From the NCBI GenBank assembly GCA_030390025.1, contig CM059432.1:98768001-98832000 (forward strand): a stretch of 64,000 nucleotides of DNA. Direction: 5' to 3'. Origin of the DNA: Squalus acanthias (lineage: Eukaryota). The notes below the pieces were generated by a model, which was not told the origin of the DNA, searched no databases, and saw only the letters and a list, made by a program, of their open reading frames with translations. A program made the position numbers and the translations under genes. Shown here piece by piece: positions 190 to 60,064 of this stretch (its first letter is position 1; the number at the start of each line of letters is the position of its first letter).

Positions 190-1000
190 CCCACGATGCC
201 TCTGATCAGCTTCCCAAGGCCGCCGACCCCTCCTCAAGGCCTCCGATATACCCCGCATGATACCTCCAATCCCCCCCACGAGGCCTCCAATCCCCCCCAC
301 GAGGCCTCCAATCCCCCCCACGAGGCCTCCAATCCTCCCCACGAGGTCTCCAATCCCCCCCACGAGGCCTCCAATCCCCCCCACGAGGCCTCCAATCCCC
401 CCCACGAGGCCTCCAATCCCCCCCACGAGGCCTCCAATCCTCCCCACGAGGTCTCCGATCTCCCCACGTGGTCTCCGATTCCCCCACGAGGTCTCCAATC
501 CCCCCCGCATGATACCTCCAATCCCCGCCACGAGGTCTCCGATCCCCCCACGAGGTCTCCGATCCCCCCACGAGGTCTCCAATCCCCCCCACGAGGTCTC
601 CGATACCCCCACGAGGTCTCCGATACCCCCACGTGGTCTCCGATCCCCCCCACGAGGTCTCCGATACCCCCACGTGCTCTCCGATCCCCCCCACGTGGTC
701 TCCGATCCCCCCACGTGGTCTCCGATCCCCCCACGTGGTCTCCGATCCCCCCCACGAGGACTCCGATTCCCCCCACGAGGACTCCAAACCCCCCCACGAG
801 GTCTCCGAACTCCCCCATGAGGTCTCCAATCACCTTCCAAGGCCTCCGACACCTGCTCGAGGGCTCTTATACCTCCACGAGGCCTCCAATCAATTTCTTG
901 AGGCCTCCAATCCTCCCCCCGAGGCCTGCGATAACTGCCCACCCCCCGCTCGAGGCCTGCGATCGCCCCCATGAGGCCTCCGATCGCCTTCCCAGACTTC
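190..1000. repeat. C-rich minisatellite, ~21-23 bp unit (CCCCCCACGAGGCCTCCAAT / ...GGTCTCCGAT)
   Basis: Direct tandem repetition visible in the sequence. Confidence 0.95.
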
Positions 1001-4000
1001 CCCCTCCAGCCCCGATCCATCCAGCCCCCCGATCATTACACACCCCGATCCATCCACCCGCCGATCCATCCACCCCCCGATCCATCCACCCCCCGATCCA
1101 TCCACCCCCCGATCCATCCACCCCCCGATCCATCCACCCCCCGATCCATCCACCCCCCGATCCATCTACCCCCGATCATTACACCCCCCGATCCATCCAC
1201 CCCCCGATCCATCCACCCCCTGATCCATCCACCCCCCGATCCATCCACCCCCCGATCCATCCACCCCCCGATCCATCCACCCCCCGATCCATCCACCCCC
1301 CGATCCATCCACCCCCCGATCCTTCCACCCCCCGATCCTTCCACCCCCCGATCCATCCACCCCCAATCCATCCAGCCCCAAATCCTCCCACCCCCGATCC
1401 ATCCACCCCCCGATCCATCCACCCCCCGATCCATCTACCCCCGATCATTACACCCCCCGATCCATCCACCCCCCGATCCATCCACCCCCTGATCCATCCA
1501 CCCCCCGATCCATCCACCCCCCGATCCATCCACCCCCCGATCATTACACCCCCCGATCCGCCCACTCCCCGATCCATCCACCCCCCGATCCGCCCACCCC
1601 CCGATCCATCCAGCCCCAAATCCATCCACCCCCCGATCCATCCACCCCACGATCTGCCCACCCCCGATCCATCCACCCCCCGATCCATCCACCCCCCGAT
1701 CCTTCCACCCCCCGATCCTTCCACCCCCCGATCATTACACCCCCCGATCCTTCCACCCCCCGATCATTACACCCCCCGATCCGCCCACCCCCCGATCCAT
1801 CCAGCCCCCGATCCGCCCACCCCCCGATCCATCCACCCCCGATCATTACACCCCCCGATCCATCCACCCCCGATCCATCCACCCCCCGATCCATCCACCC
1901 CACGATCTGCCCACCCCCCGATCCATCCACCCCCCGATCCTTCCACCCCCCGATCCTTCCACCCCCCGATCATTACACCCCCCGATCCTTCCACCCCCCG
2001 ATCATTACACCCCCCGATCCGCCCACCCCCCGATCCATCCAGCCCCCGATCCGCCCACCCCCCGATCCATCCACCCCCGATCCATCCACCCCCGATCCAT
2101 CCACCCCCGATCCATCCACCCCCGATCCATCCACCCCCGATCCATCCACCCCCGATCCATCCACCCCCGATCCATCCACCCCACGATCTGCCCACCCCCC
2201 GATCCATCCACCCCCCGATCCATCCACCCCCCGATCCATCCACCCCCGATCATTACACCCCCCGATCCATCCACCCCCGATCCATCCACCCCCCGATCCA
2301 TCCACCCCACGATCTGCCCACCCCCCGATCCATCCACCCCCCGATCCATCCACCCCCCGATCCATCCACCCCCCGATCCTTCCACCCCCCGATCCTTCCA
2401 CCCCCCGATCCATCCACCCCCAATCCATCCAGCCCCAAATCCTCCCACCCCCGATCCATCCACCCCCCGATCCATCCACCCCCCGATCCATCTACCCCCG
2501 ATCATTACACCCCCCGATCCATCCACCCCCCGATCCATCCACCCCCTGATCCATCCACCCCCCGATCCATCCACCCCCCGATCCATCCACCCCCCGATCA
2601 TTACACCCCCCGATCCGCCCACTCCCCGATCCATCCACCCCCCGATCCGCCCACCCCCCGATCCATCCAGCCCCAAATCCATCCACCCCCCGATCCATCC
2701 ACCCCACGATCTGCCCACCCCCGATCCATCCACCCCCCGATCCATCCACCCCCCGATCCTTCCACCCCCCGATCCTTCCACCCCCCGATCATTACACCCC
2801 CCGATCCTTCCACCCCCCGATCATTACACCCCCCGATCCGCCCACCCCCCGATCCATCCAGCCCCCGATCCGCCCACCCCCCGATCCATCCACCCCCGAT
2901 CATTACACCCCCCGATCCATCCACCCCCGATCCATCCACCCCCCGATCCATCCACCCCACGATCTGCCCACCCCCCGATCCATCCACCCCCCGATCCTTC
3001 CACCCCCCGATCCTTCCACCCCCCGATCATTACACCCCCCGATCCTTCCACCCCCCGATCATTACACCCCCCGATCCGCCCACCCCCCGATCCATCCAGC
3101 CCCCGATCCGCCCACCCCCCGATCCATCCACCCCCGATCCATCCACCCCCGATCCATCCACCCCCGATCCATCCACCCCCGATCCATCCACCCCCGATCC
3201 ATCCACCCCCGATCCATCCACCCCCGATCCATCCACCCCACGATCTGCCCACCCCCCGATCCATCCACCCCCCGATCCATCCACCCCCCGATCCATCCAC
3301 CCCCTGATCCATCCACCCCCCGATCCATCCACCCCCGATCCATCCAACCCCGATCCATCCACCCCCCGATCATTACACCGCCCGATCCTCCCACCCCCCC
3401 GATCCATCCACCCCCCGATGCATCCACCCCCCGATCCATCCACCCCCCGATCCATCCACCCCCCGATCCATCCACCCCCCGATCCATCCACCCCCCGATC
3501 CATCCACCCCCCGATCCATCCACCCCCCGATCCATCCACCCCCCGATCCATCCACCCCCCGATCCATCCACGCCCCGATCCATCCACCCCCCGATCCATC
3601 CACTCCCGATCATTACACCCCCCGATCCATCCACCCCCCGATCCATCCACCCCCCGATCCATCCACCCCCCGATCATTACACCCCCTGAGCCATCCACCC
3701 CCCGATCCATCCACCCCCTGATCCGCCCACCCCCGATCCATCCACCCCCTGATCCATCCACCCCCCGATCATTACACCCCCTGAGCCATCCACCCCCGAT
3801 CCGCCCACCCCCCGATCCATCCACCCCCCGATCCATCCACCCCCCGATCCATCCACCCCCCGATCCATCCACCCGCCGATCCATCCACCCCCGATCCATC
3901 CACCCCCCGATCCATCCACCCCCCGATCCATCCACCCCCGATCGTTACACCCCACGATCCATCCACCCCCCGATCCATCCACCCCCCGATCCATCCACCC

Positions 4001-5460
4001 CCTGATCCATCCACCCCCCGATCCATCCACCCCCCGATCCATCCACCCCCTGATCCATCCACCCCCTGATCCGCCCACCCCCCGATCCATCCACCCCCGA
4101 TCCATCCAACCCCGATCCATCCACCCCCCGATCATTACACCGCCCGATCCTCCCACCCCCCCGATCCATCCACCCCCCGATCCATCCACGCCCCGATCCA
4201 TCCACCCCCCGATCCATCCACTCCCGATCATTACACCCCCCGATCCTCCCACCCCCCGATCCATCCAACCCCGATCCATCCACCCCCCGATCATTACACC
4301 GCCCGATCCTCCCACCCCCCCGATCCATCCACCCCCCGATCCATCCACGCCCCGATCCATCCACCCCCCGATCCATCCACTCCCGATCATTACACCCCCC
4401 GATCCTCCCACCCCCCGATCCATCCACCCCCGATCATTACACCCCCCGATCCATCCACCCCCCGATCCATCCACCCCCGATCCATCCACCCCCCGATCCA
4501 TCCACTCCCGATCATTACACCCCCCGATCCTCCCACCCCCCGATCCATCCACCCCCGATCATTACACCCCCCGATCCATCCACCCCCCGATCCATCCACC
4601 CCCGATCCATCCACCCCCCGATCCATCCACCCCCCGATCATTACACCCCCTGAGCCATCCACCCCCCGATCCATCCACCCCCTGATCCGCCCACCCCCGA
4701 TCCATCCACCCCCTGATCCATCCACCCCCCGATCATTACACCCCCTGAGCCATCCACCCCCTGATCCGCCCACCCCCCGATCCATCCACCCCCCGATCCA
4801 TCCACCCCCCGATCCATCCACCCCCCGATCCATCCACCCGCCGATCCATCCACCCCCGATCCATCCACCCCCCGATCCTTCCACCCCCCGATCCATCCAC
4901 CCCCCGATCCATCCACCCCCCGATCCATCCACCCCCCAATCCATCCACCCCCCGATCCATCCACCCCCGATCCATCCACCCCCCGATCCATCCACCCCCC
5001 GATCCATCCACCCCCCGATCCATCCACCCCCTGATCCATCCACCCCCCGATCATTACACCCACCGATCCATCCACCCCCCGATCCTCCCACCCCCCCATC
5101 CATCCACCCCCGATCGTTACACCCCCCGATCCATCCACCCCCGATCGTTACACCCCCCGATCCATCCACCCCCCATCCATCCACCCCCCGATCCATCCAC
5201 CCCCCAATCGTTACACCCCCGATCCATCCACCCCCCGATCCATCCACCCCCCAATCCTCCGACCCCCCAATCGTTACACCCCCCGATCCTTCCACCCCCC
5301 GATTGTTACACCCCCGATCATTACACCCCCGATCCATCCACCCCCCGATCCATCCACCCCCCGATCCATCCACCCCCCGATCCTCCCACCCCCCGATCCA
5401 TCCACCCCCCGACCCATCCACCCCCCGATCGTTACATCCCCGATCCATCCACCCCCCAAT
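1000..5460. repeat. 16-bp minisatellite (CCCCCCGATCCATCCA and variants) with higher-order duplications
   Basis: Hundreds of units with variants GATCATTACA, GATCCTTCCA, GATCCGCCCA; variant patterns recur at a 1057-bp offset. Confidence 0.97.
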
Positions 5461-5828
5461 GCTCCAGCCCTGATCTTTCCACCCCCGATGCTCCGACCCT
5501 GATCCGTCTACTCCCTGATGCTCCGGTCCCGATCTTTCCACCCTCCGATGTTCCGGCCCAGATTCTTCCCTCTCCCCAATGCTCCTCCGGCCCCCGGCCC
5601 CCACCCGATCCCTCCTTCCCTCCTCTCTGCAGCCTACAGGCTTGCCCACCCACAGCCAGCCAGCCTCTCCATCTGACTGGCTGTGGGTGGGAAAGAGAGG
5701 TTTGAAATTAAAATCAGGCCCTGCCGTTAAATTCAGCATGGCCTGGGGGGAACCCATTCTTCCGGGTTTCCCGACCGCTTTCTAGCCCCCCGCTCCAAAC
5801 CTGCCTCCATAATAACATTCAGTCCATT

Positions 5829-16190: not shown

Positions 16191-17792
16191 CAACAACAAC
16201 TTGTATTTATAGAGCCTTTAACTTAGTAAAACGTCCCAAGGCGTTTCACAGGAGCGTTATAAAACAAGATTTGACACCAAGCCACATAAGGAGATATTCG
16301 GGTAGGTGAGGTCAGTTTTAAGGAGCGTCTTAAAGGAGAAAGTCAAGTCTAAAGGTAACAAAAGCATGGATGAGGGTTTCAGCAGCAGATGAGCTGAGGC
16401 AGGGGTAGAGTCGGGCGGTATTCCGGAGGTGGAAATAGGCGATCTTAGTGCTAGCAGGAAGTTTATTTCGGGGTCAAATATGAAACCAAGGTTGCGAACA
16501 GTCTGGTTTAGCCTCAGACAGATGCCAGGGAGAGGGATGGAGTTGATGGCTAGGGAACGAAGTTTGTGGCGGGGACTGAAGACCGTGGCTTCGGTCTTCC
16601 CAATATTTAGTTGGAGGAAATTTCTGCTCATCCAGTACTGGATGTCCGACAAGCAGTCTGACAACTTAGAGACTGTGGAGGGGGTCGAGAGAGGTGGTGG
16701 TGAGGTAGAGCGGGGTGTCATCAGCGTACATGTGAAAACTGATGCTGTGTTTTCGGGTGATGTCGCAGAGGGGCAGCATCTAGATGAGAAATAGGAGGGG
16801 GCCAAAGATAGATCCTTGGGGGACACCAGAGGTAATGATGCGGGAGCAGGAAGAGAAGCCATTGCAGGTGATTCTCTGGCTATAATTAGATACATAAGAA
16901 TGGAACAAGGCGAGTGCAGTCCCACCCAGCTTCACGTCAGTGGAGAGGCGTTGGAGGAGAATGGAGTGGTCAACCGTGTCAAAGGCTGCAGACAAGTCAA
17001 GAAGGACGAGGAGGGATAGTTTACCTTTGTCACAGTCACATAGGATGTCATTTGTGACTTTGCTAAGAGCCGATTCCGTACAGTGGCGGGGCGGAAACCT
17101 GATTAGAGGGATTCAAACATGGAGTTCCGGGAAAGATGGGCACGGATTTGGGAGGCGACAACACATTCAAGGACATTGGAGAGGAAAAACAGGTTGGAGA
17201 TGGGGCAGTAGTTAGCAAGGACGGAGGGTTCATGGGTTGGTTTTTTGAGGAGAGGGGTGAAGACGGCAGATTTGAAGGAGAGTGGGACAGTACCTGAGGA
17301 GAGAGAACCATTAACAATATCTGCTAACATGGGAGTCAGGAAAGGAAGTTGGGTGGTCAGCAGTTTAGTGGGAATAGGGTCAAGGGAGCAGGAAGTGGGT
17401 CTCATGGACAAGATAAGCTCGGAGAGGGTATGAGCAGAGATTGGAGAGAAACTGGAGAAAGATGCGAGTTCAAGGCTAGAGGAAGTTTGGCTCAGTGGGC
17501 TAGGGGAAGGGAGGGAAGTGGCAGGGGAAACTGGATCAGATGGTCTCAATCTTAGTGACAAAGAATTCCAAGAGCTCCTCGCACTTGTTAGAAGTGAGGG
17601 CAGAGGAGTGAGGGAGAGGGGTTTAAGAAGACGGTTTGCGGTAGAGAAAAGAAGCCGGGGGTTATCTTTGCATTCCAGAATGATGCTGGAATAGTGAGCA
17701 TATTTGGTAGAGGTGAGCAGGACCCAATAGTGCTTTGTGTGCTACAGCCAGATCTGGCGGTGAATGGCTAAACCCGTTGTCCGCCGCCATAT
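16190..17792 (-). mobile_element. L2 LINE, partial
   Basis: CSLDPIPTKLL, SAAFDTVDH, GVPQGSIFGPLLF; (GTT)n tail at the left end. Confidence 0.92.
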
Positions 17793-17794
17793 TT

Positions 17795-19486
17795 TTGTTT
17801 AAATTTGTTTAAGGGATGTGGGCGTCGCTGGCAAGGCCAGCATGTATTGGCCATCCCTAATTACCCTTGAGAAGGTGGTGGTGAGCCGCTTTCTTGACCT
17901 GCTGCAGTCCGTGTGGTGAAGGTACTCCCACAGTGCTGTTAGGTAGGGAGTTCCAGGATTTTGACCCAGCGATGATGAAGGATCAGCGATATACTTCTAA
18001 GTCAGGATGGAGTGTGAGTTGGAGGGGAACTTCGAGGTGGTGGTGTTCCCATGTGTCTGCTACCCTTGTCCTTCTAGGTAGATGTTGCAGGTTTGGGAGG
18101 TGCTGCTGAAGAAGCCTTGGCGAGTTGCTGCAGTGCATCTTGTAGATGGTACACACTGCAGCCACAGTACGCCAGTGGTGGGGGGAGTGAATGTTTAAGG
18201 TGGTGGATGGGGTGCCAATCAAGTGGGCTGCTTTGTCCTGGATGGCGTTGAGCTTCTTCAGTGTTGTTGGAGCTGCACTCATCCAGGCAAGTGGACAGTA
18301 TTCCATGACACTCCTTACTTGTGCCTTGTAGATGGTAGAAAGGCTTTGGGGAGTCAGGAGGTGAGACACTCGCCACAGAATACCTAGCCTCTGACTTGCT
18401 CTTGTTGCCACAGTATTTATGTGGCTGGTCCAGTTAAGTTTCTGGTCAACGGTGACCCCCAGGATGTTGATGGTGGGGGATTCGGCGATGGTAATGCCAT
18501 TGAATATATAGAAGCGGTGGTTAGGCTCTCGCTTGTTGGAGATAGTCATTGCCTGGCACTTCTGTGGCGCGAATATTACCTGCCACTTATCAGCCCAAGC
18601 CTGACCATCGTTCAAGTCTTGTTGCATGCGGTCATGGATTGCTTCATTATCTGAGGAGTTTTGAATGGCACTGAACACTGTGCAGTCATCAGCGAACATC
18701 ACCGTTTCTGACATTATGTTGGAGGGAAGGTCATTGATGAAGCAGCTGAAGATGGTTGGGCCTAGGACACTGCCCTGAGGAACTCCTGCAGCGATGTCCT
18801 GGGGCTGTGGTGATTGACCTTCAATCACCACAACCATCTTCCTTTGTGCTAGGTATGACTCCAGCAAGTGGAGAGTTTTCCCCCCGATTCATATTGACTT
18901 CAGTTTTACTAGGGCTCCTTGATGCCAGACTCGGTCAAATGCTGCCTTGATGTCAAGGGCAGTCACTTTCACTTCTGCTCTGGAATTCAACTCCTTTGTC
19001 CTTGTTTGGGCTAAGGCTGTATTGAGGTCGGGAGCCGAGTGCTCTTTACGGAACCCAAACTGGGCATCAGTGAGCAGGTTATTGGTGAGTAAGTGCTGCT
19101 TGATAGCACTGTTGATGACCCCTTCCATCACTGTGCTGATGATTGAGAGTAGACTGATGGGGCGGTAATTGGCTGGATTGGATTTGTCCTGCTTTTTGTG
19201 GACAGGACATATCTGGGCAGTTTTCCACATTGTTGGATAGATGCCAGTGTTGTAGCTGTACTGGAATAGCTTGGCTAGAGGCGCAGTTAGTTCTGGAGCA
19301 CAAGTCTTCAGCACAACAGCTGGGATGTTGTCAGGGCCCATAGGCTTTGCTATATCCAGTGCGCTCAGCCGTTTCTTGATATCACGTGGAATGAATCGAA
19401 TTGGCTGAAGACTGGCTTCTGTGGTGGTGGGGACCTCAGGAGGAGGCCAATATGAATCATCCACTCGGCACTTCAGGCTGAAGATA
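17795..19486 (-). mobile_element. 5'-truncated copy of the SINE-headed LINE family (see 35432)
   Basis: High identity to 37035-38733; [25 protein letters not shown]. Confidence 0.95.
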
Positions 19487-20303
19487 GTCATAGCCCTTTT
19501 CGGGCCACCCCAGATCAGGCGTATTCCCCAGATGTTCACCTTCAACTAAAGTTAGAGGTAGCTGAATCCTATAAGATGCTTAATTGGGTCTAAAGGTTCA
19601 GACTATCTCTCCCTAAAGGAAAGGAACATCCTGAAGATGTTACCGTCCTCCGGATAGCACTTTTAACAAGTTTAACTAGACTGTAACCTTCCGGATATTA
19701 TGAGGGTCCGGAATACCCCCCAGAATTCTGCAACTCCTTTGTGAAGAGTGTACAGAAATTGAGTTCGTGAGATTGATACAGAAATACTCTGTGAGACAAT
19801 TTTAAAAATATATAGATTTATTAAAGAACCAACATTTAGTTAACAGCTGGTATGGCAATCGCAACTTTAACCGTTCAAAATACAAATAGCTTACATTTCT
19901 TATCAGAGATCCTTATTCTCAAATCTTAACTTCGCTACATTTCCACACTTCTACTTATTTCTTAATCCAGAATATCCACCAAAATCAAACACCTTGATTA
20001 CCCGAAACTCAGAGTTGTAGGCCTAAAGAGTGGTTCTGAAGGCGAGAATCGCTTGCCTTTCCAGCAACTTCTGACTCTCTATCTGGAAAGCTCTATTTTT
20101 ATACCTTTTTTTAGTGGTTTATTCTTTGAAGTTTTCTGCTGATGTAAGCTAATTGTCTCTAGTGATTCTTTATTGAATTCTTTTCTATTCTTACTGTTAA
20201 TTCAGCTGTCAGCTTTCAGAATCCTGTCTGCTGTATAGGTGTTTCAAAAACTTATCATATCCTGGTTATTACAGATTTATCTCTTTGATGCCATTCTTTC
20301 ACA
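19485..20303 (-). mobile_element. LTR related to 27283-28497, last ~15 bp missing
   Basis: Minus strand starts TGTGAAAGAAT; TATA (GGTATAAAAA), AATAAA and R/U5 align with the 27283 LTR. Confidence 0.85.
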
Positions 20304-29770: not shown

Positions 29771-30269
29771 CGACAGGTTTGACTGAGCTTACAAAAATGT
29801 TTTCTGGTACCAGTCTGCTTTTCTTGTAGTATTACCAGTCATGTTAGTCAAGTGAAGAACAAATCCTAGTAAATCAGCAAAGCCACTAGTGCTGACACTG
29901 GAAGTGTCCAGTTCTTGTTAGTACATGTTTTGTGTCCTTTGGTTTCAGCAATCAGGTCAAGGCAGGGGAAGTTAAATTTACATAAGCAGGGTAATTCAAA
30001 CAGCACAGATTTAATAATTCAGAAAAACTGGCATAAGTCCTTACATTAAATTAAATTAGGATCTCCTTAAAACCTACCTCTTTGACCAAGCTTTTGGTCA
30101 CCAGCCCTAATTTCTCCTTATGTGGCTCGGTGTCAATTTTTTTGTCTTATAACACTCCTGTGAAGTGCCTGGGAACGTTTTACTACGTTAAAAGGCATTA
30201 TATAAATACAAGTTGTTGTTGTTGTTGAAATTGATCTTGTCGTTTAAAAAAATAATTCTGATGATATTT

Positions 30270-31007
30270 GTGTCACTGGCAAGGTTGTAATTTATTGCCC
30301 ATCCCTAGTTGTCCTTGAGAAGGTGATGGGTCTTCTTCTTGAACGCTGCTGTTCACATGGTGAAAGTGCTCCCACAGTGCAGTTAGGTAGGGAGTTCCAG
30401 GATTTTGCCCCAGCAACGGTAAAGGAACAGTGATATATATTCAAGTTGAGATAATGTGAGACTTGGAGGGGAATTTGGAGGTGATAGTGTTCCAATGCAT
30501 CTGCTGCCTTTGTCCTTCTAGGAGGTGGAGGTAATGGGTTTGGGAGTGGTGCTGAAGAAGCCTTGACGAGTTGCTGCAATGCATCCTGTAGATAGTACAC
30601 ACTGCAGCCATGGTACACCAGTGGTGGAGGGAGTGGATGTTTAAGCTGGTGGATGGAGTGTCAATCAAGCGGGCTGCTTTGCCCTGGATAGTGTTGAGCT
30701 TACTAAGTGTTGTTGCTGCTGAACCCATCTAGGCAAGTAGAAAGTATTCCATCATAATCCTGACTTGTGGCTTGTAGGAGAGGCTTCGTGGAGATAGTCG
30801 TAGTCATTGTCTGGCACTTATGTGGTGAGAATGTTACTTGCCACTTATCACCCCAAGCCTGGATGTTGTCCAAGTCTTGCTGCATGCGGGCATGGACTGC
30901 TTCATTATCTGATGAATTACCTGAACACTGTGCAATCATCAGCAAATAGCCCCATTTCTGACATTATGATAGAGGGAAGGTCATTGAGGAAACAGCTGAA
31001 GATAGTT
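30270..31007 (-). mobile_element. Truncated, internally deleted copy of the SINE-headed LINE family
   Basis: SDNEAVHARMQQDLDNIQAW, CTIYRMHCSNS and the shared 3' tail. Confidence 0.88.
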
Positions 31008-31806
31008 GGGCTAGAAATTCGGCTGTTTTGTTTTGAAATTGCCATCCATGCCACGTGCCCACCCTTTTGGTGAGGGTGGTAGGGTGGGCGTTCGGAGCGT
31101 GCGCTGGAAGTATGTAGAGTAGGCAGAACGTGACGTCAATCAGCGTGCAATGCTGATTTGATGCCCTGCTGCCATTTTCATCCTCAACCCTAGAGCTAAT
31201 GCCCTGTCTTAACCTTGTACAGATAAACACGCGTTCAGTAACAGCAAGGACCACTCCCCCCCACCACCAGCGTTATTTTAAGTGATCATCAACCAATCTC
31301 ATTAGTTGCTAATTAATTTCTAATGGGAATGTGTAAGTTTGTGGAAGTGTTTGGTGCTTTCTAGAGTTGTTTAAAGTTGGTGAGGTGACAGGGAGTGGAG
31401 AAGGCCTTCGTTCTGACTTCAAGGGTTCTGGTCAGACCACTTGCTCCCAGTCATGGGTGCTCTAGTTGTCATCCCCCTTGGCCTGCAGCATGACAGGAGG
31501 ATGGAACGGAGACAACAAAGAAAAGAACAAGCTTCTCGTAGAGGGGGAGGAAGAGGAAGAGGAAGAGGAGGAGGAGCAGGAGGAAGAGAGGAAGCAACCA
31601 GCACATCCAATCTCTGGCAGGGCTGTCTGTGATTGCCTCATTCGATTACGGTTTCACTGAACACAACCCAAAATCCCCATTGAACAACAATCACAGACCT
31701 TGCCATCCCTCTGTTCTGGACCATCACAGCATCCTCTTGGCCACAATGCTGAAACAAAAGCCACCACAAAAGAAATATTCTATCCAATATTACATAACAA
31801 AGTCAA

Positions 31807-35431: not shown

Positions 35432-38400
35432 CCGCATAGTGGTAATGTCACTGGGCTAGTAATCCAGAGGCCTCGACTAATGATCCAGCGATGTGAGTTC
35501 AAATCCCACCACGGCAGCTGGGGAATTTAAATTCAGTTAATTAAATAATCTGGAATAAAAAGCTAGTATCAGTAATGGTAACCATGAAACTATCGGATTG
35601 ACATAAAAACCCATCTGGTTCACTAATGTCCTTTAGGAAAGGAAATCTGCCATCCTTACCTGGTCTGGCCTATATGTGACTCCAGACCCACAGCAATGTG
35701 GTTGACTCTTAACTGCCCTCTGAAATGGCCTAGCAAGCCACTCAGTTGTAACAAACCGCCACGAATCACAATAATAAGAATGAAACCGGATGGACCACCC
35801 GGCATCGACCTCGGCACCGGCTTCGGACACGGAAACGGCACACCCAGCCCAGTCGACCCTGCAAAGTCCTCCTCACCAACATCTGGGGATTGTGCCAAAA
35901 TTGGGCGAGCTGTCCCACAGACGAGTCAAACAACAGCCTGACATAGTCATACTCACAGAATCATACCTTCCAGCCAATGTCCCAGAATCCTCCATCACCA
36001 TCCCTGGGTATCTCCTGTTCCACCGGCAGGACAGACCCACCAGAGGTGGCGGCACAGTGGTATACAGTCGGGAAGGAGTGGCCCTGGGAGTCCTCAACAT
36101 TGACTCTGGACCCCATGAAGTCTCATGGCTTCAGGTCAAGCATTGGCAAGGAAAGCTCCTGCTGATTACCACATAGCGCCCTCCCTCAGCTGATGAATCA
36201 GTACTCCGCCATGTTGAACACCACTTGGAAGAAGCACTGAGAGTAGCAAGAGCACAGAATGTACTCTGGGTGCGGGACTTCAATGTCCATCACCAAGAAT
36301 GGCTCGGTAGCACAACTACTGACCGAGCTGGCCGAGTCCTGAAGGACATAGCTGCCAGTCTGGGCCTGCAACAGGTGGTGTGAGAACCAACACGAGGGAA
36401 AAACCTACTTGACCTCATCCTCACCAATCTACCTGTCGCAGATGCATCTGTCCACAACAGTATTGGTAGCAGTGACCACCGCACAGTCATTGTGGAGACA
36501 AAATCACGTCTTCACACTGAGGACACCCTCCATCGTGTTGTGTGGCCCTACCACCGTGCTAAATGGGATAGGTTCAGAACAGATCTAGCAGCTGAAAACT
36601 GGGCATCCATGAGGCGCTGTGGGTCATCAGCAGCAGCAGAATTGTATTCCACCACAATCTGTAACCTCATGGCCCGGCATATCCCTCACTCTACCATTAC
36701 CATCAAGCCAGGGGACCAACCCTGGTTCAATAAGGAGTGTCGAAGAGTATGCCAGGAGCAGTACCAGGTGTACCTAAAAGTGAAGTGCCAACCTGGGGAA
36801 GCTGCAACACCGGACTTACATGCATGCTAAAAAGCGGAAGCGGCATGCTATAGACAGGGCTAAGCGATCCCACAATCAACGGGTCAGATCAAAGCTCATG
36901 CAGTCCTGCCACATCCAGTCATGAATGGTGGACCATTAAACAACTAACGGGAGGAGGAGGCTCCATGAATATCCCCATCCTCAATGATGGTGGAGCCCAG
37001 CATGTGAGTGCAAAAGACAAAGCTGAAGCGTTTGCAACCATCTTCAGCCTGAAGTGCCGAGTGGATGATCCATATTGGCCTCCTCCTGAGGTCCCCACCA
37101 TCACAGATGCCAGTCTTCAGCCAATTCGATTCACTCCACGTGATATTAGGAAATGGCTGAGCGCACAAGATACAGCAAAGGCTATGGGCCCCGACAGCAT
37201 CCCGGCTATCGTGCTGAAGACTTGTGCTCCAGAACTAGCCGTGCCTCTAGTCAAGCTGTTCCAGTACAGCTACAACACTGGCATCTATCCGACAATGTGG
37301 AAAATTGCCCAGGTCCGTCCTGTCCACAAAAATCAGGACATTTTCAATCTGGCCAATTACTGTCCCATCAGTCTACTCTCAATCATCAGCAAAGTGATGG
37401 AATGTGTCATCGACAGTGCTATCAAGCGGCACATACTCACCAGTAACCTGCTCACTGATGCCCAGTTTGGGTTCCGCAAAGACCACTTGGCTCCCAACCG
37501 CTTTACAGCCTTGGTCCAAACATGGACAAAGGAGTTGAATTCCAGAGGTGAGGTGAAAGTGACTGTTCCAGACATCAAGGTAGCATTTGACGGAGTTTGG
37601 CATCAAGGAGCCCTAGTAAAACTGAAGTCAATGGAAATCGGGGGGGAAAACTCTCCACTTGCTGGAGTCATACCTAGCACAAAGGAAGATGGTTGTGGTG
37701 ATTGAAGGTCAATCATCGCAGCCCCAGGACATCGCTGCAGGAGTTCCTCAGGGCAGTGTCCTAGGCCCAACTATCTTCAGCTGCTTCATCAATGACCTTC
37801 CCTCCATCATAAGGTCAGAAGTGGGGATGTTCGCTGATGACTGCACAGTGTTCAGTGCCATTCACAACTAATCAGATAATAAAATAGTCCATGCCCACAT
37901 GCAACAAGACCTGGATGATGGTCAGGCTTGGGCTGATAAGTGGCAGGTAACATTCGCACCACAGAAGTGCCAGGTAATGACTATCTCCAACATGCGAGAG
38001 TCTAACCATCGCCCTTTGACATTCAACGGCATTACCATCGCCGAATCCCCCACCATCAACATCCTGGGGGTCACCATTGACCAGAAACTTAACTGGACCA
38101 GCCACATAAATACTGTGGCAACAAGAGCAGGTCAGAGGCTAGGTATTCTGCGGTGAGTGTCTCACCTCCTGACTCCCCAAAGCCTTTCCACCATCTACAA
38201 GGCACAAGTAAGGAGTGTGATGGAATATGCTCCACTTGCCTGGATGAGTACAGCTCCAACAACACTCAAGAAGTTTGACACCATCCAGGACAAAGCAGCC
38301 CGCTTGATTGGCATCCCATCCACCACCTTAAACATTCACTCCCTCCATCACCGGTGTACCGTGGCTGAAGTGTGTACCATCTACAAGATGCATTGCAGCA

Positions 38401-38733
38401 ACTCGCCAAGGCTTATTCAGCAGCACCTCCCAAACCCACAACCTCTTCCACCTCAAACGACAAGGGCAGCAGGCACATGGGAACACCACCACCTCCAAGT
38501 TCCCCTCCAAGTATCACACCATCCTGACTTAGAAGTATATCGTTGATCCTTCATCATCACTTGGTCAAAATCCTGGAACTCCCTCCCTAACAGCACTGTG
38601 GGAGTACCTTCACCACACGGACTGCAGCGGTTCAAGAAGGCGGCTCACCACCACCTTCTCAAGGGCAATTAGGGATGGGCAATAAATGCTGGCCTTGCCA
38701 GCAATGCCCACATTCCATAAACGAATAAAAAAA
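35432..38733 (+). mobile_element. Near full-length CR1/L2-group LINE with a tRNA-like SINE head and no ORF1
   Basis: A-box-like CCGCATAGTGG (35432-35442), B box GAGTTCAAATCCC (35495-35507), EN+RT coding region, A-rich tail. Confidence 0.88.
35860..38546 (+). pseudogene. APE endonuclease + reverse transcriptase ORF with stops and frameshifts
   Basis: PDIVILTESYL, RQDRPTRGGG, DFNVHH, LDLILTN, SDH; then [25 protein letters not shown]. Confidence 0.92.
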
Positions 38734-38744
38734 GTATTCAAAGT

Positions 38745-39825
38745 AATGAAGGAACAGCTTACAAACGTGGATGGGCAAAATTTGTTTGACAATACAATTG
38801 GAACACCTTTAAAGGCATAACATTTAGGATGATTCGCTGAGTCAAATTCATGGTCACTGGGTCAAGTTCCTGGAAGTCCCTACCTAATAGCATTGTGGGA
38901 GTACCTTCACCACATAGAATGCAGCAGTTCAAGAAGAAGGTCCACCACCACCTTTGCCGGTAGGCATGGGCAATAAATTCTGGCCTTGCTAGTGATGCCC
39001 ATAGCCCCAGAATGCATTTTTAAAAATTATTATAAATACATACTTAGAATCAGAACCTCAGACTAAACAAGCGTGACCCCAAATTAATTAACAAACTAAA
39101 CCTCTAAAGAGAAAGATGATAAGGTTCATTGGGATTACAATAAAAACACATAAAAACACATTAAAAGTTGCAATGGGAGACCTGTAAAAAAGCATAGCTG
39201 CAGAGGCAAAAGGTAACAGTACGAATTGTTTAAGTACTACACCAGTAAGTGGGCAGTCAAAGAAGAAGTGAGAATCATAAAAGATACAGCAGACTAGGAA
39301 GAGGAGGATGAGTTTAAGTTAGTAAATATTCTGAATGTTTATTTTGTCCAAGTATTCACATGGGAAGATATTAGTCATGTATCCTCCCCATTAACTTAGT
39401 CAAAATTAATAACTTCAATATAAATGAGTTGCAAGGCCTAGACAGGCCAAAAACACTCATAATAAATAAATCCCCAGGATTAGATGGCATTGATCCCATA
39501 GTGCTGAGACTAGTGAGGGATTTGTGAGGCAATAACAATAATAATGAGAATCACTAGATGCTAGGAATGGGTTTCTATGACACAATATTCTAAAAGGGTG
39601 ACAAAACAGACACAAAGAACCACAGATTCATTACTCATACTTCATTCCATGGAAAACAATACAATGAAATATTAGGAGTAAATTTGAGGATTATCTGTAC
39701 AAAAACACGCTAGTAAACAACAGTCGATATGGATTCAGAAAGGGGAGATACTATCTGAACAACATCCTTCACTTTTTTGAGGAAGTCACAATACAAATAC
39801 ACTGTGGAAAGTCCTACAACAGGGC
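38745..39825 (+). mobile_element. Old degenerate CR1 ORF2, with a short LINE/SINE tail inserted at ~38845-39020
   Basis: KSPGLDGIDPIVLR, YGFRKGR, FFEEVT remnants. Confidence 0.75.
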
Positions 39826-40548: not shown

Positions 40549-42988
40549 AAGATTGACCATAACATGGTTGAATTCCATATTCAATTAGAGGGTGAGAAGG
40601 TTGGATCTCAAACAAGCGTGCTAAGCTTGAATAAAGGTGACTATGAAGTTATGCGAGCCGAATTGAGTAGAGTGGATTGGGAAAATAGATTAAAGGGTAA
40701 GACGACACATGATCAGTGGTGTACATTCAAGGAGTTATTTTACAACTTCCAAAAAAAATATATTCCACTGAAAAGAAAAGGGTGTAGAAGAAAGGACAGT
40801 CATCCGTGGCTAAGTAAAGAAATTAAGGATAGTATTCGACTAAAAACAAGGGCATATAAGGTAGCGAAATCTAGTGGGAGGACAGAGGATTGGGAAAACT
40901 TTAAAAGGCAGCAAAAAATAACAAAAAGATTGATTAAGAAAGGGAAGATAGATTATGAAAGTAAATTAGCAAAAAATATAAAAACAGATAGTAAGAGTTT
41001 TTATAGTTATATAAAAAGAAAAAGGGTGGCTAAAGTAAATGTTGGTCCCTTAGAGGATGAGACCGGGAAATTAATGGTGGGAAATATGGAGATGGCAAAA
41101 ACACTGAATGAATATTTTGTATCAGTCTTTACAGTAGAGGACACTAAGAATATCCCAACACTGGACAAACAGGGGGCTATAGGGGGAGAGGAGCTAAACA
41201 CGATCAAAATCACTAAGGAAGTGGTACTCGGTAAAATAATGGGACTCAAGGCGGATAAATCACCTGGACCTGATGGCTTACATCCTAGAGTCTTGAAGGA
41301 AGTGGCGGTAGGGATTGTAGATGCATTGGTAATAATTTTTCAAAACTCCCTGGATTCCGCTAAGGTCCCGGCAGACTGGAAAACTGCTAATGTAACACCC
41401 TTATTTAAAAAGGGCAGTAGACAGAAGGCTGGTAACTATAGACCGGTTAGCCTAATATCTGTGGTAGGTAAAATTTTGGAGTCCATTATTAAGGAAACAG
41501 TAACAGGACATTTGGATAATCATAATTTAATAGGATAAAGTCAGCATGGTTTTACGAAGGGGAAGTCATGTTTGACAAATTTGCTGGAGTTCTTTGAGGA
41601 AGTAACATATAGAGTGGATAAAGGGGAACCAGTGGACGTAGTGTATTTAGACTTCCAAAAGGCATTTGACAAGGTGCCACACAAAAGATTATTGCTTAAG
41701 GTAAAAAATCACGGGATTGGGGGTAATATTCTGGCATGGATAGAGGATTGGCTATCTAACAGAAAGCAAAGAGTTGGGATAAATGGTTCATTCTCAGACT
41801 GGCAATCAGTAACTAGTGGTGTTCCACAGGGGTCAGTGCTGGGTCCCCAACTCTTCACAATCTATATTAACGATTTGGAGGAAGGGACCAAGTGTAACAT
41901 ATCAAAATTTGCAGATGATACTAAGATGGGAGGGAAAGTAGTGAGTGAGGAGGACATAAAAAACCTGCAAGGGGACATAGACAGACTAAGTAAGTGGGCA
42001 GAGATTTGGCAGATGGAATACAACACTGGAAAGTGTGAGGTGATGCACTTTGGCAGGAAAAATCCTAGAGCAATTTATTATCTTAATGGCAAGAAACTGG
42101 AGAGTACTGAAGTGCAAAGGGATCTGGGGGTCCTGGTGCACGAAACTCAAAAGGTTAGTATGCAGGTGCAGCAAGTGATTAAGAAGGCAAATGGAATGTT
42201 GGCTTTCATTGCTAGGGGGATAGAATATAAAAATAGGGAGGTATTGCTTCAGTTGTACAAGGTATTGGTGAGACCGCACCTGGAATACTGCATACAGTTT
42301 TGGTGTCCTTACTTAAGGAAAGACATCCTTGCTCTCGAGGCAGTGCAAAAAAGGTTCACTCGGTTAATCCCGGGGATGAGGGGGTGGTCATATGAGGAGA
42401 GGTTGGGTAGATTGGGACTCTACTCATTGGAGTTCAGAAGAATGAGAGGCGATCTTATTGAAACATATAAGATTGTGAAGGGGTTGGATCGGGTGGATGC
42501 GGGGAGGATGTTCCCGATGACGGGTGAGACTAGAACTAGGGGACATAGTCTTAGAATAAGGGGCTGCTCTTTCAAAACTGAGATGAGGAGGAACTACTTC
42601 ACTCAGAGGGTGGTAGGTCCATGGAATATGCTGCCACAAAAAGCTGTAGAAGCTACATCATTAAATAAATTTAAAACAGAAATAGACAGTTTCCTAGAAG
42701 TAAAGGGCATTAAGGGTTACGGGGAGCGGGCAGGAATTTAGACATGAGTCTAGGTTCGGATCAGTCATGGCCCTGTGGGTAGTGGAGCGGGCCCAGGGAC
42801 TGTGTAGCCTGATTCTGCTCCTATTTTGTGTGTGCAATTCTGTTAGATGCAGGAGATGGTTCTGTGATAGTAGATAGTAGATTGGCGGTTAGGATCAGAT
42901 CAGCCATGATCTTATTGAATGGTGGAGCAGGCTCGAGGGGCCGATTGGCCTACTCCTGCTCCTATTTCTTATGTTCTTATGTTCTTAT
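40549..42988 (+). mobile_element. Young CR1 LINE, truncated at the end of the endonuclease
   Basis: Continuous ORF2 frame; (TTCTTATG)n tail. Confidence 0.96.
40564..42741 (+). pseudogene. CR1 ORF2 RT, open except for one TAA at 41536-41538
   Basis: ORFs 40564-41538 and 41572-42741 share a frame (NLIG*SQHGF). Confidence 0.93.
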
Positions 42989-45680: not shown

Positions 45681-45884
45681 TCATTGTCATTGGAGGATCT
45701 GGTAGATTACATAGAATGTACAGCACAGAAATAGGCTAACTGATCTATTATGATATTTATACTCCACACAAGCCCCCTCTCACTCTAATTACTAAAAGAC
45801 TTCTGATAATACCTGCCCTTTAAGCTGAAGCAGGCATTTGAAGCCTGTAGCAGCGCACTATTTCCCATCGACAAATGGGTGAGC

Positions 45885-46852
45885 CAATAATCTTCAGCTG
45901 CTTCATCAATGACCTTCCCTCCATCATAAGGTCAGAAGTGGGGATGTTCCCTGATGACTGCACAGTGTTCAATTCCAGTCACAACTCCTCAGATAATGAA
46001 GCCGTCCATGCCCGAATGCAACAAGACCTGGACAACATTCAGGCTTGGGCTGATAAGTGGCAAGTAACATTCGCACCACACAAGTCCAGGCAATGACCAT
46101 CTCCAACAAGAGAAAATATAACCACCTCTCCTTGACATTCAGTGGCATTACCATCATCAAATCCCCCACCATCAACATCCTGGGGGTCACCATTGACCAG
46201 AAACTTAACTGGACCAGCCACAGAAATACTGTGGCTACAAGAGCAGGTCAGAGGCTGGGTATTCTGCAGTGAGTGCCTCACCTCCTTACTCCCTAAAGCC
46301 TTTCCACCATCATCAAGGCACAAGTTAGGGGCGTGATGGAATACTCTCCACTTGCCTGGATGAGTGCAGCTCCAACAACACTCAAGAAGCTCGACACCAT
46401 CCAGTACAAAGCAGTCTGCTTGATTGGCACCCCATCCACCACCTTAAACATTCACTCCCTCCACCACTGGCGCACTGTGGCTGCAGTGTGTACCATCTAC
46501 AAGATACACTGCAGCAACTCGCCAAGGCTTCTTTGGCAGCACCTCCCAAACCCGCGATCTCTTCCACCTAGAAGGATAAGGGCTGCAGGCGCATGAGAAC
46601 ACCACCACCTCCAAGTTCCCCTCCAAGTCACACACCATCCTTACTTGGAAATATATCGCCGTTCCTTCAGTGTCGCTGGGTCAAAATCCTGGAACTCCCT
46701 ACCGAACAGCACTGTGGGAGTACCTTCACCACATGGACTGCAGCGGTTCAAGAAGGCGGCTCACTACCACCTTGTTCAAGGGAAATTAGGAATGGGCAAT
46801 AAATGCTGGCCTTGCCAGCAATGCCCACATCCCATAAACGAATAAAAAAAAT
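45885..46852 (+). mobile_element. 5'-truncated copy of the SINE-headed LINE family
   Basis: High identity to 37765-38733, including the tail. Confidence 0.94.
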
Positions 46853-53015: not shown

Positions 53016-54412
53016 ATTATTTCTAGGGCCACTTCCTTCAGTTCCCTAGGATGTAGATTATCAGGCCCTGGGGATTTATCGGCCTTCAATCCCATCAATT
53101 TCCCTAACACCATTTCCCTAAAAATACTGATTTCATTCAGTTCCTCCCTCTCATTAGACCCAATGTTCCCCAACATCTCTGGGAGGTTATTTGTGTCCTC
53201 CTTTGTGAAGACAGAACCAAAGTATGTATTTAATTGGTCTGTCATTTCTTTGTTCCCCATTATAAATTCCCCTGATTCTGACTGCAAGGGACCTACGCTT
53301 GACTTCACCAATCTTTTTCTCTTCACATATCTATAGAAGCTTTTACAGTCAGTATTTATGTTCCCTGCAGCTTACTCTCATACTCTATTTTCCCCCTCTT
53401 AATTAATCCTTTTGTCCTCCTTTGCTGAATCCTAAACTGCTCCCAATCCTTAGGTTTGCTGCTTTTTCTGGCCAAATTATATGTACTCTCCTTGGATCTT
53501 ATGCTATCCCTAATTTCCCTTGTTACCCATGGTTGCACCATCTTTTTTGTTTTATTTTTATTCCACACAGGGTTGAACAAATTCTGTGGTTCATCCATGC
53601 AATCTTTAAATGTTTGCCATTGCCTATCTACCGTCAACCCTTTAAGTAACATTCCCCAATCCATCCTAGCCAACTCGCGCCTCATACCATCATAGTTTCC
53701 TTTATTTAAATTCAGGACCCTAGTCTCTGAGTCAACTACTTCACTCTCCATCTTAATGAAGCATTCTATCATATTATGATCGCTCCTCTCCAAGGGGCCT
53801 CGCACAATAAGATTGCTAATTAATCCTTTCTCATTACATAATACCCAGTCTAAGATGGCCTGATCTCCAGTTGGTTCCTCGACATATTGGTCCAGAAAAC
53901 CATCCCGTATACACTCTAGGAATTCCTCTTCCACAGTATTGTTACTAATTTGGTTAGCCCAATCTATATGTAGATTAAAGTCACCCATGATAACTGCTGT
54001 GCCCTTATTGCACGCATCTCTAATTTCCTGTTTAATGCCATCTCCAACCTCAGCATTACTGTTTGGGGGTCTGTATACAACTCCCACTAACATTTTCTGC
54101 ACCTTCGTATTTCTGAGCTCTACCCATACAGATTCCACATCATCAGAGCTAATATCCTTCCTAAGTATTGTGTTAATCTCTTTAACCAGCAATGCTACCC
54201 CACCTCCTTTTGCTTTTTGCCTGTCCTTCCTGAATATTGAATACCCCTGGATGTTGAATTCACAGCCTTTGTCACCCTGGTGCCAAGTCTCCGTAATCCC
54301 AATTATATCATATCCGTTTACATCTATTTGCAGAGCTAATTCATCCATCTTATTACGAATGCTCCTCGCATTAAGACACAAAGCCTTCAGGCTTGTTTTT
54401 TTAACACTCTTA

Positions 54413-55309
54413 GGGGGAGAAATTCAGTATCGCCCCATTTGGGGCGCAATTATCGGCCGGGCGCAAAGATTAGCGCCTGGCGCTAATTATCGCCACCGAC
54501 TGCAAACTTGACTTTTAACGCCCCTGGAGTTGATTGGAGCGCTAAATCAAGCGCTTCACACCTGTCTTAAGGCGCAAAGGCCGAGGAGCGAGGCGCTACC
54601 TCAGAGCGTTGGCGAAGCTCATGTAATGTCAGTCAGCAATGCAACACACACACAATGGCACGGGCCAGTTCTTAAAGGGGATGGTTGATCTTGCTTTCCA
54701 TCCACATCCTGCTCATTGCAGCCTTGAATCTCGGCCTGGAGAGACCTGCACGTCAAATCTGCTGGAAAGAACAATGGAGAGTACCAGGCAAAGAGCTCAG
54801 AGTGCAGCCCCCACAGTCTCTTCTAAATCGATACAAGGAATGGCAAATCAAAATGAACCTGCAAAGTGCTGCTCAGTACCCAAAACTCCTTCACACAACG
54901 TTGAATCTCTCCAGAAGTCTCTCTCTCTCTCTCTCTCTCAGAATGCGTAGTTCAAAAATGGCACCAACAATAAAAGGCAGGAAGCGGTCACCTTTAAATA
55001 GCACTCCCCCTTTCCCTTCATGACTGCAGAACGCTCCCCTCAACCTATCGTTGCTAGCGTCAGGTGGTAAGGCAGGGGGCGCCACTCAATATCCGCTCTG
55101 GGGCGATACCGGGGCGTTGCGCACTCGACTGACGTCACGATCTGCCGGTGCAGCAGATCATGGCGGTAGTGTTTAGCGCCGCTGCAAAATGTCTAGTTAA
55201 TTTCGCGAGCGGCGCAAACTTCGCCGCGCCTGGGCGCTAGATGCTTTGCACCCCATTAGCGCCCTCTTAAGGCGCTAACGGGAGGCGCAACCAACTGAAT
55301 TTTCCCCCC
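54413..55309. mobile_element. Harbinger-type MITE, copy 1
   Basis: 16-bp TIR GGGGGAGAAATTCAGT; TSD TTA. Confidence 0.93.
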
Positions 55310-55329
55310 TTAGTCCTTTTAGAATTATT

Positions 55330-56222
55330 GGGGGAGAAATTCAGTATCGCCCCATTGGGGGCGCAATTATCGGCCGGGCGCAAAGATTAGCGCCTGGCAC
55401 TAATTATCGCCACGGACTGCAAACTTGACTTTTATCGCCCCTGGGGGTGATTGGAGCGCTAAATCAGGCGCTTCACTCCTGTCTTAAGGCGCAAAGGCCG
55501 AGGAGCGAGGCGGTACCTCAGAGCGCTGGCGAAGCTCATGTAATGTCAGTCAGCAATGGAACACACACACAATGGCACGGGCCAGTTCTTAAAGGGGATG
55601 GTTAATCTCACTTTCCATCCACATCCTGCTAATTGCAGCCTTGAATCTCGGCCTGGAGAGACCTGCACATCAAATCTACTGGAAAGAACAATGGAGAGTA
55701 CCAGGCAAAGAGCTCAGAGTGCAGCCCCCACAGTCTCTTCTAAATCGATACAAGGAATGGCAAATCAAAATGAACCTGCAAAGTGCTGCTCAGTACCCAA
55801 AACTCCTTCACACAACGTTGAAACTCTCCAGAAGTCTCTCTCTCTCTTTCTCAGAATGCATAGTTCAAAAATGGCACCAACAATAAAAGGCAGGAAGCGG
55901 TCACCTTTAAATAGCGCTCCCCCTTTCCCTTCATGACTGCAGAACGCTCCACTCAAACTGTCGTTGCTAGCGTCAGGCGGTAAGGCAGGGGGTGCCACTC
56001 AATATCTGCTCCGGGGCGATACCGGGGCGTTGCGCACTCGACTGACGTCACGATCTGCCGGCGCAGGAGATCGTGGCGGTAGTGTTTAGCGCCGCCGCAA
56101 AATGTCTAGTTAATTTCGCGAGCGGCGCAAAAATCGCCGCGTCTGGGCGCTAGATGCTTTGCGCCCCATTAGCGCCCTCTTAAGGCGCTAACGGGAGGCG
56201 CAACCAACTGAATTTTTCCCCC
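55330..56222. mobile_element. Harbinger-type MITE, copy 2
   Basis: Same TIR; TSD ATT; highly similar to copy 1. Confidence 0.93.
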
Positions 56223-58895: not shown

Positions 58896-60064
58896 ATGGG
58901 TGGCACCTTGGCTCCCTTAGATTGGACCTCGGACAAGGAACAATATGTACATCAGCAGCTGCTGTTGACAGATCTGCAGCTGAACAGTACAGAGAGGAGC
59001 AGCTCGCAGGAGGCACTACCTGAAAAACAGGGTGTACAGGCAGAGGCTGAGTTTCCTTGACCTGTCAGAAGAGCAGTGCTTCTGGAGACTCAGGTTGTCA
59101 ATCAGGTGATGGCAGATATCTGCAGCCTCCTAGAAGAAGACCTGCTTCCTGGTGGCCATGCATTACCTGTAACTGTGGAAGTGACCACCGCCCTCAAATG
59201 TTTTGCCTCCGGATCCTTCCAGGGCTCTGCCGGAGTCATATCCAAGATCTCCCAGTGTTCGGGATACAAATGCATAAGGCAGATGTCTGGTGGGTTGTTT
59301 GCCAGTGCCGGCAATTATGTCAACTTTGCCTGTGATGATGCCAGTCAGAATGAGCGGTCGCTCGGGTTTGTGTCTCTGGCTGGCTTCCCACAGGTGCAGG
59401 GTGTCATCACACTCCCAGATCAACCAGGAATATTCATAAACTGCAAGGGTTGCCACTCCATCAATGTGCAGATGCTGTACAACCACCAGAAAAGATATTT
59501 ATGCAGGTGTGCACTAGATTCCCGGGGAAATGCTATGATGCTTTCATCCTGTAGCAGTCCAAGCCCCCTGATGCCTTTGGACCTGTAAGCAGACCTAAAG
59601 GGTGGCTACTGGAAGACAAAGGATACCCCCTTCAGACTTGGCTGATGACGCTCGTGAGAAACCCAACCAATGAAACCCAAGAGCAGTACAATGAATGCCT
59701 TATGACCACCAGATGTGTCATTAAGCAAGCAATTGGCATGTTCAAGATACGCTTCAGCTGCCTGGACAGATCTGGAGGTGCCCTTCCACATGCACCAGCC
59801 AGGGTCTCCAGAATGACTGTGGTGTACTGCGCTCTGCCAAACATTGCGCTGCAGCGAGGATTGGAGCTGCAGGAAGATCAAGGTGCTGAGCGCACATTGT
59901 CTACAGAGGAATCTAAGGAGGAAGAGGTGGAGGAGGAAGAGTTGGAGAAGCAAGAGGAAGAGGAAGAGGAGGAGGAGGAAGATGATTATGCCAGTGCAGC
60001 ACCCGGTGCTCACACTACTGTCCAGGATGCCAGGGATTCCCTTATTACTACAAGGTTCACTTAG
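58896..60064 (+). pseudogene. Harbinger transposase (HARBI1-type), frameshifted
   Basis: ALKCFASGSFQ, AGFPQVQGVI, FINCKGCHSINVQ, DKGYP, TRCVIKQAIGMFKIRFSCLD; acidic tail. Confidence 0.92.

Follow-up and report, generated by a model that had tools for sequence, protein, structure and literature searches.

A tRNA-headed Zenon LINE of Squalus acanthias is poor in T-tracts on its coding strand and may have been read by RNA polymerase III

We analyzed a window of 64,000 nucleotides from the Squalus acanthias genome (contig CM059432.1, positions 98,768,001 to 98,832,000 of the forward strand). The window holds a near full-length retrotransposon, referred to here as the focal element, and several partial copies of the same family (Table 1). 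Judged from its sequence, it is a decayed copy of a Zenon LINE of the elasmobranch type. Zenon elements are recognized by a single frame for endonuclease (APE) and reverse transcriptase (RT), by the absence of ORF1, and by poly-A tails. The focal copy lacks ORF1 and carries one APE-RT frame, and family tails end in A7 (38727-38733) and A8 (46844-46851). Pfam detected Exo_endo_phos_2 in the focal copy and RVT_1 in the sister copy. In a quick tree without a named Zenon RT, the focal RT grouped within a clade of 16 rows (SH-aLRT 99), separate from the CR1 in the window. No target-site duplication was seen by eye around the focal element.

Table 1. Features of the focal element, its family copies, and a control element in the window.
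Feature	Position	Strand	Remarks
Zenon-type LINE (CR1 group), decayed but nearly complete	35434..38733	+	family 5' end short by ~10 nt
tRNA-like head	35434..35509	+	Rfam tRNA 20.2 bits, E 0.15, below the gathering score of 29
5' region common to the short head+tail (SINE-like) form	35434..35756	+	junction contigs, run X1
Conserved AUG, offset from the endonuclease frame	35780..35782	+	same offset by eye in the HypSab consensus
Endonuclease and reverse transcriptase, one frame broken by stops and frameshifts	35860..38672	+	tblastn with intact relatives
TTATT, the sole terminator-type motif besides T4	38413..38417	+	family form TTCTT, a weak terminator in vitro
AATAAA (38681-38686) and A-tail (38727-38733)	38681..38733	+
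Sister copy, 5'-truncated, 91% identical	17789..19488	-	no T4; 3 T3 in ORF; T3 before the tail As
Older copy, 5'-truncated, 81-83% identical	30246..31011	-	T7 (30246-30252) directly before the As; body without motif depletion
Tail-only family fragment	38847..39026	+	T5 (39017-39021), then A5 at the end
5'-truncated copy, 89% identical	45884..46851	+	no T4
Canonical CR1, control outside the family	40549..42988	+	T-runs at chance level

The 5' end of the focal element resembles a tRNA. SINE2 elements characteristically begin with a tRNA-derived head that contains A and B boxes, and we found such a head here at an Rfam score below the gathering threshold; ARAGORN gave no tRNA in 35434..35509. We take 35434-35442 to be an A-box remnant and 35497-35505 to be the B box; the motif positions were located in the sequence and the box consensus is assumed. 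About 350 nt of further 5' sequence lies between the head and the APE-RT frame (~430 nt of 5' sequence in all). The possibility that the focal element is an ordinary short, non-coding SINE2 was ruled out by its 3.3-kb length and its APE-RT frame.

The family has published relatives. The supplement of Stuart et al. (2026, PMC13343379) contains 10 Zenon consensuses, of which 7 come from elasmobranchs (5 species, 2.9-3.3 kb): SquAca_Zenon-1/2/3 and the CarCar, HypSab, RhiTyp, and ScyCan elements. Zenon is also recorded in the whale shark genome (10.1101/443036). We compared the first 400 nt of the supplement's consensuses by eye. The same tRNA-like head opens 7/7 elasmobranch consensuses and 0/3 from hagfish and coelacanth, and the B box GTTCRAATC is present in six of the seven. 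The SquAca_Zenon-1 consensus appears nearly identical over these 400 nt to the 5' end in the window, as compared by eye without alignment.

Public RNA runs were available as contigs of guessed type. In one of them, X1, 462,030 contigs were placed, with depth in 30/30 bins; from another, X24, no reads were placed. Loose ends preceding position 35434 in 563 X1 contigs provide the ~10 missing 5' letters, which agree by eye with the start of SquAca_Zenon-1 in the published supplement. Among the X1 contigs listed, 35607-35955 and 35653-35968 link the 5' region to the start of the ORF, and none covers the whole element. A short form made of head and tail was seen in many contigs, with several differing breakpoints. 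Ten of the 15 joints listed for X1 connect 35716-35756 to 38607-38670 and correspond to this form. The arrangement suggests that SINEs were born repeatedly from the focal LINE or exchanged tails with it. Shark DNA was not found in the metagenome contigs or viral contigs searched.

Other repeats surround the family. Control elements in the window are called CR1 and L2 here, labels that we presume to be correct. Positions 200-5500 hold a G+C-rich satellite of 21-nt and then 16-nt units that is T4-free on both strands; it was left out of the tile controls described below. A direct duplication with a spacing of about 915 nt and 93-95% identity occupies 54400-56134, and decayed frames at 59061-60064 resemble what we take to be a Harbinger-type transposase.

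A sequence-only reading of this window had drawn attention to runs of four T residues (T4), at which Pol III terminates, and had proposed that the ORF is selected to be readable by Pol III from end to end. Its counts were correct. The forward strand of 35432-38733 contains a single T4, at 37341-37344, and the sense strands of 17820-19486, 30270-31007, and 45885-46852 contain none. The CR1 at 40549-42988, said to hold at least seven, has eight. The same reading spoke of a SINE-headed LINE family and found no T4 in the bodies of these three copies. Their bodies are T4-free, but the head is carried by only one of the four larger family copies in the 64-kb window, and two tails beyond the stretches it had scanned contain T5 and T7. 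The copies in the window are not independent of one another.

The single T4 was attributed to a change after insertion, and our data agree. The site reads GACAAATCC in the sister copy, encoding KQDKSNPANYRP, and KNQDIFNLANYCP in the focal copy. The sister's KQDKSNPANYRP is near the relatives' consensus HKKxxRSDPxNYRP and fits it better than the focal protein does. Because one sister copy and a conserved protein motif both point away from the focal form, the focal T4 is probably derived. The 40 of 197 X1 differences listed do not show the site at 37341-37344. The first 400 nt of the published consensuses were also scanned by eye: T4 is absent from 7/7 elasmobranch Zenons, and T4+ runs occur in each hagfish and coelacanth one (PMC13343379, supplement). 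Since ~310 of these 400 nt are common to the SINE form, this absence is not independent evidence about the ORF.

We compared the T4 count with several null models. Base shuffling of the whole element gave an expectation of 5.1 runs against the one observed (p 0.018), and the same test on the LINE-only part, from which the SINE-shared ends were removed, gave p 0.077. Shuffling dinucleotides or trinucleotides gave expectations of 2.2 (p 0.28) and 1.1 (p 0.72), respectively. For the 928 in-frame codons the expectation was 2.8 with synonymous permutation (p 0.18), 2.0 when T or C was redrawn at their third positions (p 0.33), and 1.4 with a CpG-aware codon redraw (p 0.59). The claimed T4 depletion is not significant after control for codons and dinucleotides (1 vs 1.4-2.8, p 0.18-0.59), and on the terms that the sequence-only reading had set for itself this refutes it. 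With just 1.4-2.8 runs expected, the test has little power even at zero, and a complete absence of T4 would still give only p 0.16 under the dinucleotide null. We dropped T4 as a test statistic for being underpowered and non-significant under the dinucleotide, trinucleotide, and codon nulls. The strand and CR1 contrasts drawn by that reading are partly compositional because the A4 and CR1 T4 counts match composition. A4+ runs are indeed frequent on the sense strand (16 in the element) but equal the expectation (15 vs 15.1); the CR1 has 8 T4 runs against 7.1 expected, at a T content of 0.25 compared with 0.21 in the focal element. The A4-versus-T4 contrast was dropped as evidence.

That codon and dinucleotide nulls account for T4 is what would be expected if the element were an ordinary Pol II unit. 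Its captured SINE head would then be a 5' UTR or a Pol II promoter, and T-tracts would be scarce for other reasons: low T, low Phe, C-ending codons, or lineage-specific avoidance of U-rich sequence (splice acceptors, cleavage elements, instability). We consider this explanation unlikely, in view of comparisons with other elements that are given below.

Pol III termination is not limited to T4. For human Pol III, Orioli et al. (PMC3141230) report that isolated T3 is inactive in vitro and that T3VT, TVT3, T3VT2, T2VT3, T2AT2, and T2CT2 terminate partly, with 15% termination at T2CT2 in vitro. We defined a terminator set as T4 plus these non-canonical motifs; the efficiencies are human and may differ in shark. 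The set was chosen post hoc, after T4 had failed and after the absence of T3VT and TVT3 had already been noticed. Because the p-values for this set are post hoc, the rank among control ORFs is the safer evidence.

The focal element contains two terminator-set sites in 3295 nt. Mononucleotide shuffling predicts 14.3 (p <0.001), dinucleotide shuffling 8.5 (p 0.002), and trinucleotide shuffling 5.7 (p 0.027). Codon permutation of the coding region gave 7.25 against 2 (p 0.006). On the antisense strand the motif count is as expected (35 vs 36.6). Analogues of the set built on A or C occur at normal frequency, and the one built on G falls short under the dinucleotide null alone (p 0.03). Depletion in the LINE-only part was significant under the mono- and dinucleotide nulls (p 0.0003 and 0.021) and non-significant under the trinucleotide null (p 0.109), a result that favors the Pol II explanation. 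The sister copy gave p 0.052 (codon) and 0.139 (dinucleotide), and the older copy at 30246..31011 shows no depletion (4 vs 4.8 expected). At 38415, within the TTATT site, A is replaced by C in 98% of X1 depth, and C is found in the three other window copies. Both focal sites are probably derived, the T4 from no terminator and TTATT from the weak TTCTT. Internal canonical and strong non-canonical terminators, which a Pol III unit should lack, are absent apart from these two probably derived sites. The proposal that the ORF is selected for Pol III readability, which fails on the T4 statistic, finds post hoc support in this wider set.

We compared the focal ORF to control ORFs from related elements. 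Eighty CR1-group loci were taken from metagenomes; 59 with an ORF of at least 1500 nt were kept (54 clusters at 60% identity) and 21 were dropped. Terminator density is 0.61/kb in the focal element and at least 4.3/kb in 59/59 controls. The four controls with T at 0.20-0.22 have 4.3-6.7 motifs/kb, and L002, a composition-matched close relative, has 6.7/kb. The ratio of observed to codon-expected motifs is 0.28 in the focal ORF, and the control minimum is 0.57. In the window itself, three CR1s and one L2 carry 9-14 motifs/kb. These CR1/L2 and control-ORF densities argue against the Pol II explanation. L065 and L014, the two controls with the fewest terminator motifs relative to codon expectation (0.57 and 0.67), pair as sisters in the quick tree (SH-aLRT 99). 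No tRNA gene was predicted by ARAGORN in the 50 of 80 control loci scanned, and no Rfam match was found in 20 of 80. However, ARAGORN overlooks the shark head as well and Rfam scores it low, and 4/59 controls have a B-box-like motif close to the start of the ORF. Absence of the head in controls is therefore weak evidence.

Composition remains a point in favor of the Pol II explanation. Phe is low in the focal ORF (2.4%), and this is common to the sister clade, in which the closest invertebrate proteins have 2.1-3.3%. These nearest invertebrate-type RT relatives (P0005, P0009, P0012, P0033, and P0043) were compared as proteins. Another Zenon-like subgroup has 5-6.5% Phe. The CR1 in the window likewise favors TTC for Phe (p 0.01).

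The depletion extends to shorter tracts. T3+ runs number 9 in the focal ORF, compared with 14.3 under codon permutation (p 0.029), 19.8 from base composition, and 17.7-19.3 under the redraw nulls (p 0.001-0.002). The sister ORF has 3 against 8.0 (codon permutation, p 0.006). Observed/expected ratios for T3+ are 0.45 (focal) and 0.26 (sister); all 59 control ORFs have at least 0.84, with a median of 1.11. In both copies, no non-CpG trinucleotide is more strongly depleted than TTT. Within the stretch that the sister covers, only three of the eight focal T3+ runs are common to both. All pure T3 runs in the focal element (10/10) are isolated. In the LINE-only part, the T3+ deficit gave p 0.20 under the dinucleotide null. 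T3+ runs and interrupted T-tracts are rarer in this ORF than chance predicts and rarer than in all controls.

A single SINE-LINE fusion could in principle have a low T-tract count as a fluctuation that a post hoc statistic then inflated. One lineage is involved, several statistics were tried, and the pre-stated T4 test failed. Against this, the focal ORF ranks 1/60 against the control ORFs on both T3+ and the motif set, and when 228 window tiles are ranked, family copies take the five lowest places, with a minimum of 0.62 among the 207 non-family tiles. We regard chance as very improbable. The data support selection against T-tracts in the coding strand of this one lineage; depletion by itself does not identify the polymerase.

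On balance we think it probable, though by no means certain, that RNA polymerase III, whose normal products are only short non-coding RNAs, transcribed an active ancestor of the focal LINE over its whole length. TFIIIC/B would use the internal A and B boxes, so that every full-length insertion would bring its own promoter. Variants with T4 or interrupted T-tracts would be truncated ahead of the 3' RT-recognition tail; because such RNAs would lack the tail that the RT needs, the variants would leave no copies and the motifs would be purged. Transcription would end at a terminal T-run, and the RNA would be polyadenylated in an AATAAA-dependent manner, as in mammalian T+ SINEs. Internal deletion of the LINE would yield the head+tail SINE. 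Preservation of the A and B boxes in 5 species counts against the Pol II explanation, with which AATAAA and poly(A) are also compatible. A second AATAAA at 35554-35559, ~120 nt from the 5' end, lies at the same place by eye in the CarCar, HypSab, ScyCan, and SquAca consensuses. This signal would be awkward in a Pol II transcript, counting against that explanation, and harmless in a Pol III transcript.

The weakest step in the proposed Pol III pathway is translation. A 3.3-kb RNA without a cap serves poorly as mRNA, a problem that a Pol II mRNA would solve. Translation of the Pol III transcript would need a non-AUG start or a frameshift, or else occasional Pol II transcripts would have to supply the protein. 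The first Met of the APE frame occurs only at about residue 247. Between 35780 and 35890, the short frame opened by the offset AUG and the endonuclease frame are both open up to the start of APE, and the same is seen by eye in the stingray (HypSab) consensus. Given this offset frame, initiation at a non-AUG codon or a -1 frameshift is possible. No stable RNA fold was predicted in 35740-35900 (z +0.52), so neither an IRES nor a ribozyme is supported.

The lack of an in-frame AUG ahead of the endonuclease domain could instead reflect a division of labor, in which Pol III RNA serves as the RT template and most of the protein is supplied by other copies through Pol II read-through transcripts. Such an element would act as a giant coding SINE mobilized in trans, and ORF2p alone is reported to mobilize Pol III RNAs in trans (PMC2666806). 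Retention of a full-length ORF is easiest to explain if the protein-encoding RNA is also the copied RNA, and we consider this division improbable. The fullest form of the Pol III proposal, an autonomous coding LINE of sharks and rays that is Pol III-transcribed throughout, translated uncapped without an in-frame AUG, and converted to a SINE by deletion alone, is more tentative; we judge it to fall somewhat short of an even chance.

Tails of the family vary. Of the five in the window, T7 or T5 immediately precedes the As in two, T3 is present in one, and no T run is seen in the remaining two, one of which is the focal tail; 3/5 thus have no T4+ terminator. Mammalian T+ SINEs such as B2, Dip, and Ves (PMC8466645) likewise combine AATAAA, a T-run terminator (here T5/T7 in 2/5 tails), and an A-tail. 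The none/T3/T5/T7 series, from five tails only, resembles the terminator loss and regain described for them. Those SINEs are short and non-coding, unlike the 3.3-kb coding focal element.

We compared the focal element to other described systems. The elasmobranch Zenons of PMC13343379 match it in length (2.9-3.3 kb), lack of ORF1, single APE-RT frame, and poly-A. All Zenons in that source, with and without the head, lack ORF1; its absence is therefore not diagnostic, and we dropped it as support for Pol III. The terms "tRNA," "polymerase III," and "promoter" do not occur in the main text of that paper, which describes neither the head nor the terminator depletion. The lepidopteran Zenon/Persaeus pair (PMC6740152) also comprises a Zenon LINE and a poly-A-tailed internal-deletion derivative with its 5' and 3' parts. 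Persaeus shows neither homology to tRNA nor a Pol III promoter, whereas the shark 5' part is tRNA-like. Bov-tA/BovB and SINE2-1_ACar/Vingi (Kojima 2018, PMC5786205) share a short form with a tRNA head and LINE-derived ends. In those systems the head is found only on the non-coding derivative and the LINE is taken to be a Pol II unit, whereas the shark coding element is itself headed; the same source describes SINEs as unable to encode protein and treats LINEs as Pol II units. SacSINE1 and the Deu-SINEs (PMC5499810), compared by description only, include a shark SINE that joins a tRNA head to the tail of a CR1-group partner, but the reported partner of SacSINE1 is L2-2_CM.

The Zenon family is already catalogued, and the promoter type and terminator purge proposed here appear to be new in the literature searched. 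That search, whose coverage mostly excluded subscription papers and Repbase Reports, found no tRNA-headed or Pol III-transcribed coding LINE. If true, transcription of a coding LINE by Pol III would break down the division between LINEs as Pol II units and Pol III elements as non-coding. It would be a natural test of the elongation range of Pol III and of uncapped RNA translation, and it would provide a one-step route from LINE to SINE.
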